Origin: Escherichia coli
Lineage (GTDB): Bacteria > Pseudomonadota > Gammaproteobacteria > Enterobacterales > Enterobacteriaceae
Direction: 5' to 3' (one strand)
Length of the DNA stretch: 978 nucleotides
Assembly: GCF_003334255.1 (NCBI RefSeq)
Contig: NZ_QOWU01000180.1
Positions 1 to 661 of this stretch are shown in pieces. The notes beneath the pieces are model-generated. The model ran no database searches, was not told where the DNA came from, and saw only the letters and a program-made list of their open reading frames with translations. A program made the position numbers and the translations under genes. Numbering within the stretch: position 1 is the stretch's first letter; each line of letters begins with the position of its first letter.

Positions 1-230
1 TCTGCGTTGCGCAGGCAGGATCTGGCCTCCACGGATTGTCCGGCCCACCATACAGCGGTGGCTGCATTGACGGTTCCACCGTTGCGTTCTGAATCCACCG
101 GGTCGATGAGTTTCTCAAACTGTTTGCCCAGCTTTCCGGTGAACGGGTCGAAAAACACCGCGCCAATCGCGAATATGACTGCGTCCGGTCCGGTACCCAA
201 TGTTTCGGTGTCGATCATGAGATGGTTCAC
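1..230 (-). CDS. Putative DEDD-family (DnaQ-like) 3'-5' exonuclease, N-terminal part; gene continues beyond window position 1
   Basis: Minus-strand frame is open from 230/218 to position 1 (72 codons from the ATG, no stop). Translation from ATG at 218-216: MIDTETLGTGPDAVIFAIGAVFFDPFTGKLGKQFEKLIDPVDSERNGGTVNAATAVWWAGQSVEARSCLRNA. Asp-Thr-Glu at residues 3-5 followed by a hydrophobic stretch matches the Exo I motif of DEDD exonucleases; this is motif recognition only, no search was run. In-frame GTG at 230-228 overlaps the upstream stop (GTGA) and sits 7 nt after GGAGT (plus 238-242); the ATG at 218 is 19 nt from that site, so GTG-230 is the better-supported start. The plus-strand ORF 7..264 on the same DNA has a low-complexity S/P/T/C-rich product and no ribosome-binding site. 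Confidence 0.55.
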   Translation of the reverse strand, partial: MNHLMIDTETLGTGPDAVIFAIGAVFFDPFTGKLGKQFEKLIDPVDSERNGGTVNAATAVWWAGQSVEARSCLRNA

Positions 231-460
231 TGTGTGCACTCCTTCTGTTCGGCGTTGTTCGTGAGCGTTGCAATCAGTCGTTCAATGGATGAGCAGGTTT
301 CCTCCGGGGAGGTGTGCTTCTCTCTCGCTGTGTCAACCAGGTCACGCAGCAATTCGCAGATATGCGCACGCTCGGCTTTTCTTGCGGCCATGCTGATATG
401 TGCATGATGGTTAGCTGGTCTGGCGGCTATTTCTCTGCCGGGTGATTCGGCTGTTCTCAT
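227..460 (-). CDS. Hypothetical small hydrophilic protein, 77 aa, function unknown
   Basis: ATG at 460-458 is preceded by AGGAG (plus 468-472, minus strand) with a 7-nt spacer; TGA stop at 229-227. Product: MRTAESPGREIAARPANHHAHISMAARKAERAHICELLRDLVDTAREKHTSPEETCSSIERLIATLTNNAEQKECTQ, charged and probably helical, with a His-rich N-terminus. The track's 85-aa version (227..484) needs a TTG start at 484 with no ribosome-binding site. I do not recognise the family. Confidence 0.7.
   Translation of the reverse strand: MRTAESPGREIAARPANHHAHISMAARKAERAHICELLRDLVDTAREKHTSPEETCSSIERLIATLTNNAEQKECTQ
238..242 (-). promoter_or_regulatory. Shine-Dalgarno-like GGAGT for the exonuclease-like gene, embedded in the 3' end of the upstream CDS
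   Basis: Minus-strand GAAGGAGT (plus 238-245) lies 7 nt upstream of the in-frame GTG at 230-228. Confidence 0.45.
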
Positions 461-467
461 TTGTTGA

Positions 468-472
468 CTCCT
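468..472 (-). promoter_or_regulatory. Shine-Dalgarno site (AGGAG) for the 77-aa gene
   Basis: Minus-strand AGGAG followed by 7 nt (TCAACAA) and then ATG at 460; an A/U-rich tract (UCUUUUUU) lies immediately upstream. Confidence 0.65.
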
Positions 473-496
473 GAAAAAAGACAAAGGGAACCCGAT

Positions 497-518
497 GGCA
501 TGAATGCCTTAATTAATT
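497..518. repeat. Inverted repeat GGCAT-GA-ATGCC (497-508) directly adjoining the palindrome TTAATTAA (509-516); candidate protein-binding site or RNA hairpin
   Basis: Read directly from the sequence: 5-bp arms GGCAT/ATGCC with a 2-bp spacer, next to the self-complementary TTAATTAA / AATTAATT (509-518), in the AT-rich spacer upstream of the 77-aa gene. Confidence 0.3.
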
Positions 519-565
519 GTTCGTATGTTTTCTGGTGTTATTGCGTTCTTATTTGAAGCTTAAGG

Positions 566-661
566 TTATTCCCAGATCTTCAGGGCTAACCAGATAAGCG
601 CACACACCTGAAATATCAGCCACACACTGGCAATGGTGAGTATTGCTTTTACATTCTTCAT
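566..661 (-). CDS. Putative small hydrophobic (single transmembrane) peptide, 31 aa
   Basis: Minus-strand ATG at 661-659, TAA at 568-566. Product: MKNVKAILTIASVWLIFQVCALIWLALKIWE, with Lys-flanked N-terminus and a roughly 20-residue hydrophobic core. It begins 12 nt after the stop of the 41-aa ORF and in the same frame. No strong Shine-Dalgarno site (upstream is AGCGAAAACGTT), so translation would depend on coupling or reinitiation. Below the ORF-track size cutoff. Confidence 0.35.
   Translation of the reverse strand: MKNVKAILTIASVWLIFQVCALIWLALKIWE

Follow-up and report, generated by a model that had tools for sequence, protein, structure and literature searches.

Translational coupling through an ATGA stop/start overlap is found in trpE-trpD, in trpB-trpA and in many phage operons. 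Leader peptides act in attenuation, as in trpL (a frame of 14 codons), hisL and pheL, and nascent-peptide sensors are represented by ermCL, tnaC and the cat leader. At the level of the RNA itself, polycistronic transcripts of phages and bacteria carry intercistronic stem-loops that mark sites of processing or stabilise the mRNA behind them, and RNA thermometers of the FourU type are present in the agsA, lcrF and toxT leaders.

We analysed a stretch of 978 nucleotides of Escherichia coli DNA (the window), in which a 14-codon open reading frame (ORF) on the minus strand (457-501) ends in an ATGA overlap with the start of a gene encoding 77 amino acids (the 77-aa gene). It had been proposed that this upstream ORF could be a leader peptide or a coupling element for the downstream pair of genes, or could simply have arisen by chance. 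As in the ATGA coupling systems, the UGA of the upstream ORF overlaps the downstream AUG. Unlike in those systems, the upstream partner is a 14-codon frame with a weak and structured start, the downstream gene has a strong Shine-Dalgarno (SD) sequence, and the overlap is not conserved among close relatives. The locus also resembles attenuation and nascent-peptide leaders, since a short ORF lies in a 5' leader with a stem-loop and partly overlaps a helix that could sequester the SD. However, neither a run of regulatory codons nor a terminator/antiterminator pair was seen here, the sequence, length and frame of the peptide are not conserved, and most homologous leaders lack the start codon. We consider it highly probable that the upstream ATG and its 14 codons are a by-product of a conserved leader stem-loop in a P2-like early operon, and not a conserved leader peptide or coupling device. 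A role for the upstream ORF as a leader peptide is very unlikely.

The early operon and the upstream reading frame

The window derives from an E. coli prophage of the P2-like kind (Peduoviridae) and covers part of its early operon, which is transcribed on the minus strand of the window. It matched 30 of 5426 complete E. coli genomes with 85-95% identity, and the match was chromosomal every time. The order of genes in JNEC-KY204 is integrase, C-type HTH repressor, Cox, DUF4761, DUF4754, a 41-aa ORF, a gap and the 77-aa gene, followed by a 3'-5' exonuclease, a ParE-like gene, a Dam methylase and further genes, the last of which encodes the replication endonuclease. The genes of this operon are tightly packed, with intergenic gaps of -10 to +34 nt. 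Larger gaps are few: the one ahead of the 77-aa gene, one of 68 nt and two that exceed 500 nt.

The product of the 77-aa gene (227-460, minus strand) matched phrog_22206 with E=4e-46. The match aligned residues 1-75 with positions 1-75 of the 76 in the profile, and the annotated start of the gene is therefore right. RefSeq relatives also annotate the gene from the ATG at 460. Only 25 clusters of homologues of this protein were found, and all clusters that carry a source name come from E. coli. Downstream lies the N-terminal part of the 3'-5' exonuclease (Rv2179c-like; 1-230, minus strand), whose GTG (230-228) overlaps the TGA of the 77-aa gene (229-227) and is preceded by GGAG at 242-239, 8 nt upstream. 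Relatives have TAATG at this junction where the window has GTGA (230-227), and the overlap in the window probably represents real stop/start coupling between these two genes. Stop/start overlaps are usual in this operon (gaps of -4 and -1 in locus L001), and the 41-aa hydrophobic ORF (799-674, minus strand) starts in an ATGA overlap with the DUF4754 stop at 799-796.

Megablast of the window against the phage collection returned nothing. A search of that collection in distant mode gave only a match of 111 nt, in the exonuclease of Klebsiella phages, and it was this match that led to the homologous Klebsiella leaders discussed below. A scan of genome contigs for peptide patterns, using the 77-aa alignment, gave no confirmed locus.

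The minus strand around the upstream ORF reads ...CAATTAATTAAGGCATTCATGCCATCGGGTTCCCTTTGTCTTTTTTCAGGAGTCAACAAATGAGAACA..., and all coordinates of the original prediction were borne out by it. The ORF runs from the ATG at 501-499 through the sense codons MPSGSLCLFSGVNK to the TGA at 459-457, which shares ATGA with the ATG (460-458) of the 77-aa ORF (227-460). The upstream ATG is preceded by AAGG at 510-507 and the 5-nt spacer CATTC (506-502), and it lies within an inverted repeat, in the 3' arm of GGCAT-TC-ATGCC (508-497).

We then asked how often such an arrangement is expected by chance, using 20,000 shuffled versions of the 105-nt intergenic leader that kept its dinucleotide composition and were placed before an unaltered main gene. 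Any ATG was found in 50% of the shuffled leaders and an ORF of at least 10 codons starting with ATG in 35%. An ORF ending in an ATGA overlap was present in 8.7%; this fell to 5.5% when at least 10 codons were required, and to 0.6% with an SD-like tetramer in range as well. The full combination is thus uncommon in shuffles, yet it was picked post hoc. Two independent facts explain it: the upstream ATG is present because it is the mirror image of the CAT in the palindrome, and the TGA is present only because codon 2 of the main gene starts with A. We judge the upstream ORF to be incidental, and its length, frame and ATG vary among homologues.

The two start sites differ in predicted quality. The SD of the 77-aa gene, AGGAG (468-472, minus strand), lies 7 nt before the ATG at 460, and its predicted duplex with the 3' end of 16S rRNA has an energy of -6.9 kcal/mol, compared to -3.7 kcal/mol for the upstream UAAGG. 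The mean predicted probability of being unpaired, from SD to AUG, was 0.57-0.71 for the main start and 0.35-0.38 for the upstream start, where both UAAGG and AUG are paired in the predicted hairpin. In addition, the 5-nt gap after UAAGG is reportedly too short to be optimal for this portion of the SD. Coupling would be indicated by a weak or occluded downstream ribosome-binding site, but the main start is predicted to have a strong and open SD of its own. These predictions suggest that ribosomes use AGGAG to start translation of the 77-aa gene, and that the upstream AUG would be little used, given its weak UAAGG, the close spacing and the pairing of both elements in the hairpin.

Variation of the upstream reading frame and constraint on the leader

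We collected 20 loci with the leader seen in the window (type A) from IMG/VR, from metagenome and genome assemblies and from RefSeq. In these homologues the upstream ORF has 10, 14, 17, 26 or 30 codons, or continues in frame into the main gene. A homopolymer inside the upstream ORF, with 6 T in the window (474-479, minus strand), is polymorphic in length. In the T6 allele the upstream ORF has 14 codons, in frame 2, with the ATGA overlap; one additional T (T7) brings the upstream ATG into frame, fused to the 77-aa gene; and two additional T (T8) give an ORF of 30 codons in frame 1 (the third frame) that runs into the gene. With 6, 7 and 8 T all occurring, each of the three possible frame relations between the upstream ATG and the main start is represented. 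Further changes are found outside the homopolymer. Codon 2 of the gene is CGA in L011, giving ATGC instead of ATGA and an upstream ORF of 26 codons, and the spacing to the main ATG is 1 nt shorter in L012, giving 17 codons. In L016, L024 and L025, CAGGAG is changed to CATGAG (GGA to TGA), and the upstream ORF stops after 10 codons. The offset from the upstream ATG to the main start is 40, 41, 42 or 43 nt. Codon 4 of the upstream ORF encodes Gly, Ala or Asp across type-A loci, and the substitutions within the ORF are mostly non-synonymous, nonsense or frameshifting. The change of the SD in L016 (1489-1515), L024 and L025 also makes a new in-frame ATG 12 nt upstream of the main start (MSQQMRTAESP..., P0008), and the 10-codon upstream ORF again ends in an ATGA overlap.

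The T6, T7 and T8 alleles were found in independent genomes and viral contigs. Among the 5426 complete E. coli genomes, 26 carry the leader, and the lengths of their matches (85, 86 and 87 nt in 14, 5 and 7 records, respectively) fall into lineage-consistent groups. These lengths are consistent with T6, T7 and T8, and T7 was directly confirmed in L001 and T8 in L023. E. coli strains SCU-172, JNEC-KY204 and EC2 carry T6, T7 and T8, respectively. Some of the homopolymer lengths could be sequencing errors, but the alleles recur in a lineage-consistent manner and in independent assemblies.

Conservation in homologous loci was the check named with the original proposal, and the idea of a leader peptide or coupling element did not survive it. 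The frame takes all three values, the ATGA overlap is lost in several lineages, and the ATG is missing from 83 of the 93 distinct homologous leaders described below. The fallback of chance came closest to the truth, with the correction that the ATG is not a matter of pure chance and is a by-product of the hairpin in a conserved leader. The upstream ATG was kept in all 20 type-A loci; all other bases of the stem are equally invariant, and the invariance of the ATG within type A does not therefore discriminate. The upstream ORF is an example of a short ORF that looks designed, with an SD-like motif and an ATGA overlap, and fails the comparative test.

A function restricted to the T6 lineage would require that ribosomes start at the AUG at 501, read through the main SD, stop at the UGA (459-457) and re-initiate at the AUG at 460, thereby coupling or tuning how the 77-aa gene and the exonuclease are expressed. 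The window shares the ATGA overlap with eight other loci, UAAGG lies 5 nt upstream of the AUG, the combination of overlap, length and SD is rare in shuffles (0.6%), and the weak CUUUU:AGGAG helix that is predicted inside the ORF could be melted by a translating ribosome. However, sister alleles with T7, T8, ATGC, the spacing shorter by 1 nt or the early TGA are evidently viable and occur commonly. A strong and independent SD precedes the main gene, the upstream start is weak and lies mostly within a helix, the ATG is lacking in 83 of 93 related leaders, and the substitutions are of the non-synonymous, nonsense and frameshifting kinds noted above. We regard such a lineage-specific function as very improbable.

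The T7 allele raises another reading, namely that the upstream ATG is an alternative start from which an extended isoform of 90-91 aa (MPSGSLCLFFRSQQM...) is made, the window being a frameshifted remnant. In L001, L002, L008 and L010 the upstream ATG is indeed in frame with no intervening stop. Nevertheless, the PHROG profile and all 25 protein clusters begin at or near MRTAESP and no form of 90-91 aa is found among the clusters, RefSeq annotates the downstream ATG even in T7 genomes, T6 and T8 break the frame, and the extension is missing from Klebsiella-type homologues. An extended isoform is thus extremely improbable.

The variation in frame stands in contrast to the near identity of the underlying nucleotides. 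The conserved non-coding leader of the 77-aa gene (461-542, minus strand) comprises AATAACACCAG..., an AU-rich TTAATTAA box, the hairpin, GGGTTCCCTTTGTC, the T-run and the SD. Type-A nucleotides from AATAACACCAG to the main ATG (∼80 nt) are nearly invariant, with a mean pairwise identity of 0.86-0.99 in bins of 15 columns, compared to 0.37-0.70 just upstream; the first codons of the 77-aa gene have a mean pairwise identity of 0.78-0.84. The 58-nt core of the leader is 93-97% identical in pairs of loci where identity at third codon positions of the 77-aa gene is 62-78%. For example, L011 and L012 share 54 of 58 core positions and 62% of third positions, and the first 11 codons of their upstream ORFs are identical, synonymous sites included. 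The mosaic breakpoints of H22-H26 begin exactly at 542/541. Synonymous sites are frozen while frameshifts are tolerated, and the strong constraint that emerges from these alignments therefore acts on the nucleotides of the leader and not on a peptide.

A hydrophobic ORF of 31 aa, MKNVKAILTIASVWLIFQVCALIWLALKIWE (566-661, minus strand), lies directly upstream of the leader and is open in all type-A loci that carry it. This ORF keeps its frame, with an in-frame +3 indel in L005 and also a variant of the C-terminal frame, unlike the upstream ORF with its frame-breaking indels. It lacks annotation in the RefSeq relatives that we inspected, and it is probably a real gene for a small membrane protein. 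In L012, a different transmembrane-like ORF of 34 aa is found where the 31-aa ORF otherwise sits.

The leader hairpin in type A and in more distant relatives

The stem-loop AAGGCA-UUCA-UGCC(A/U)U (495-510, minus strand) has a stem of 5-6 bp. Its 5' arm contains the 'AAGG' of the upstream start, and the ATG spans the junction between the loop and the 3' arm. The window has an A at 496 in place of the consensus T (CCATCGG compared to CCTTCGG), which gives one A.A mismatch in the stem and is unique to the window among the loci collected. The predicted energy of the hairpin is -4.8 kcal/mol in the window, -6.3 kcal/mol for the E. coli consensus and -7.1 to -10.3 kcal/mol for other types of leader.

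Hairpins were also found in more distant leaders. The type-B leader (L013, L019-L021), which precedes a long or an internal-deletion form of the 77-aa protein, has the hairpin UCCGC-AUCU-GCGGA at the same position with no ATG there. A more distant P2-like contig (L037), whose exonuclease is 49% identical, has UUGCCA-UUUC-UGGCAG, again without an ATG at this place. The group of Klebsiella phage 3LV2017 encodes homologues of the 77-aa protein with ∼47-49% identity over ∼56% of the query (tblastn), and its leader, AAUAACGGCA-UUCAUUU-UGCCGGGG(A/C)UUCGUUUUGCCUUUUUCAGGAGG, is clearly homologous and forms the hairpin without an ATG.

To extend this comparison, 93 distinct leaders, mostly from Klebsiella-type prophages, were collected in two pattern scans of IMG/VR, one of which fixed the stem and the SD and the other only the 3' part. 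RNAalifold on MAFFT alignments was uninformative, as differences in loop length were mis-gapped, and the arms were therefore parsed directly. Only 10 of the 93 leaders have an ATG at the hairpin, all of them E. coli type A. The loop ranges from 4 to 8 nt and takes at least 12 different sequences, and the stem GGCA/UGCC is kept. The next pair outward is usually C:G; E. coli has A:U, with a change on both sides, and a single leader has U:G. Wobble changes were G:C to G:U in three leaders and C:G to U:G in one, a broken stem pair was seen in two singletons, and changes in the stem were rare in the scan without a fixed stem. The helix is thus kept with compensatory and wobble changes across the 93 leaders while the loop varies, the pattern expected of a structured RNA, and the comparison shows that the hairpin has been maintained through changes in the length and sequence of its loop. 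An ATG results where a 4-nt loop ending in ...CA adjoins UGCC, and it arises only there.

We considered whether AAGGCAT-TC-ATGCCTT is a double-stranded DNA operator for a dimeric regulator of the phage or the host, which would explain the conservation of the leader in place of RNA structure. The E. coli consensus is a perfect palindrome of 7+7 bp, and the non-coding gap around it is unusually long for an operon so tightly packed. The distance between the half-sites, however, varies from 2 to 6 bp across homologues (arms AAGGCAT/ATGCCTT or CGGCAT/(A/T)TGCCG, with loops of 4-8 nt), and the arm sequences are wholly different in type B and in L037. The changes from G:C to G:U pair only in the sense-strand RNA and, together with the variable distance between the arms, argue for an RNA hairpin over an operator in duplex DNA. 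A promoter-like site was not found here either: a promoter scan gave no sigma-70-like site in the leader on either strand, and a search of the leader by eye gave no TGT-N12-ACA dyad of the late-promoter kind. An operator is therefore a distinctly unlikely explanation.

A hairpin followed by a U-rich tract could alternatively be a weak intrinsic terminator or attenuator that lowers read-through from the first early genes into the block of 77-aa gene, exonuclease and methylase. The hairpin is followed by CUUUGUCUUUUUU, an alternative AAGGCA/UGUCUU pairing in the window's own fold would put the stem directly before the U-run, and UUGCCA-UUUC-UGGCAG in L037 is followed by GGCUUUUUAUU. Against this, a terminator scan found nothing on the minus strand in 457-565, and the U-run begins 9-20 nt past the conserved stem in type-A and Klebsiella leaders. 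The type-B leader is without a U-run, and the stems are short and only moderately stable. Termination or attenuation at this hairpin is unlikely.

Possible roles of the leader RNA and variants of the neighbouring genes

The leaders share a common anatomy of an AU-rich tract, a stem-loop, GGG(G)-UUC, a U-tract and the SD. Folding predicts a weak helix between the U-tract (CUUUU; GCCUUU in Klebsiella-type leaders) and the SD (AGGAG or GGAGGU). The T6/T7/T8 indel lies within the loop of this helix, a location that would explain why it is tolerated. Folds of the whole leader were no more stable than those of shuffled sequences for type A and the Klebsiella type (z = -0.8 to +0.9, not significant), and we therefore claim no larger structure; the type-B leader reached z-scores of -1.1 and -2.1.

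The U run (CUUUU/GCCUUU), which can pair with the SD (AGGAG/GGAGGU) in a short hairpin upstream of the AUG, is reminiscent of FourU thermometers. Members of that class would be recognised by a match to the curated family or by a U4:AGGA helix supported by covariation. Unlike such thermometers, the leader matched no Rfam family at E<=1, FourU included, and its predicted helix is very weak and shows no covariation. U-rich tracts beside an SD are in any case good contexts for ribosome binding. The resemblance to FourU elements is only a lead.

The leader also resembles intercistronic stem-loops, as it presents a small conserved hairpin inside an operon, after an AU-rich single-stranded tract, with the stem kept and the loop free. 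By analogy, the hairpin may serve as a stem-loop for processing or stability of the transcript. We infer that the leader most likely works at the level of RNA. It would act through an AU-rich single-stranded tract, the stem-loop and then a U-rich tract that pairs weakly with the SD, and could set the processing or stability of the distal operon mRNA, the rate of translation of the 77-aa gene and exonuclease pair, or both. This strongly conserved leader with its hairpin lies before an uncharacterised small gene and a 3'-5' exonuclease in many P2-like prophages of E. coli and Klebsiella, and it is a candidate element for processing or translational control of the early operon.

We found nothing on this element in the literature on terminators or leaders of P2-like early operons. 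The conserved leader is a real cis element, apparently undescribed and of an unremarkable kind. A more far-reaching proposal is that early operons of Peduoviridae contain, in this ∼80-nt leader, a cis-regulatory RNA that has gone undescribed and governs processing or translation of phrog_22206 and the exonuclease, and that the incidental AUG adds a modulating small ORF in the T6 sub-lineage of E. coli. We put this forward tentatively and consider it rather doubtful.

Variant forms of the genes at this place were also observed. Among the loci L013 (1247-1735), L015 and L019-L021 (1501-1734), some prophages encode a long form of 162 aa, the C-terminal 77 aa of which correspond to the window protein. 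Met1 of the latter is an internal Met of the long form, and a Pfam search with the long form gave nothing significant. Other prophages encode a 77-aa form with an internal deletion (MSINTPTEINKLFTDPAHTNAH...). Both the long and the internal-deletion forms lie behind a different leader, with the CCGCATCTGCGG hairpin.

For the homologue of Klebsiella phage 3LV2017 (L041 2272-2517, NC_047817 gp07), the annotation starts at a TTG that lies 22 nt upstream (LPFSGGRMSIT...). Translation more likely starts at the ATG that follows AGGAGG, which is the start given in CP052639 and NC_049450. In L001 (10420-10489), a GC-rich intercistronic hairpin, GAAGCC-AUCCCGCACCCGUGCGCGGGA-GGCUUC, lies ahead of the gene that comes before the replication endonuclease, and stem-loops between genes may recur in this operon.
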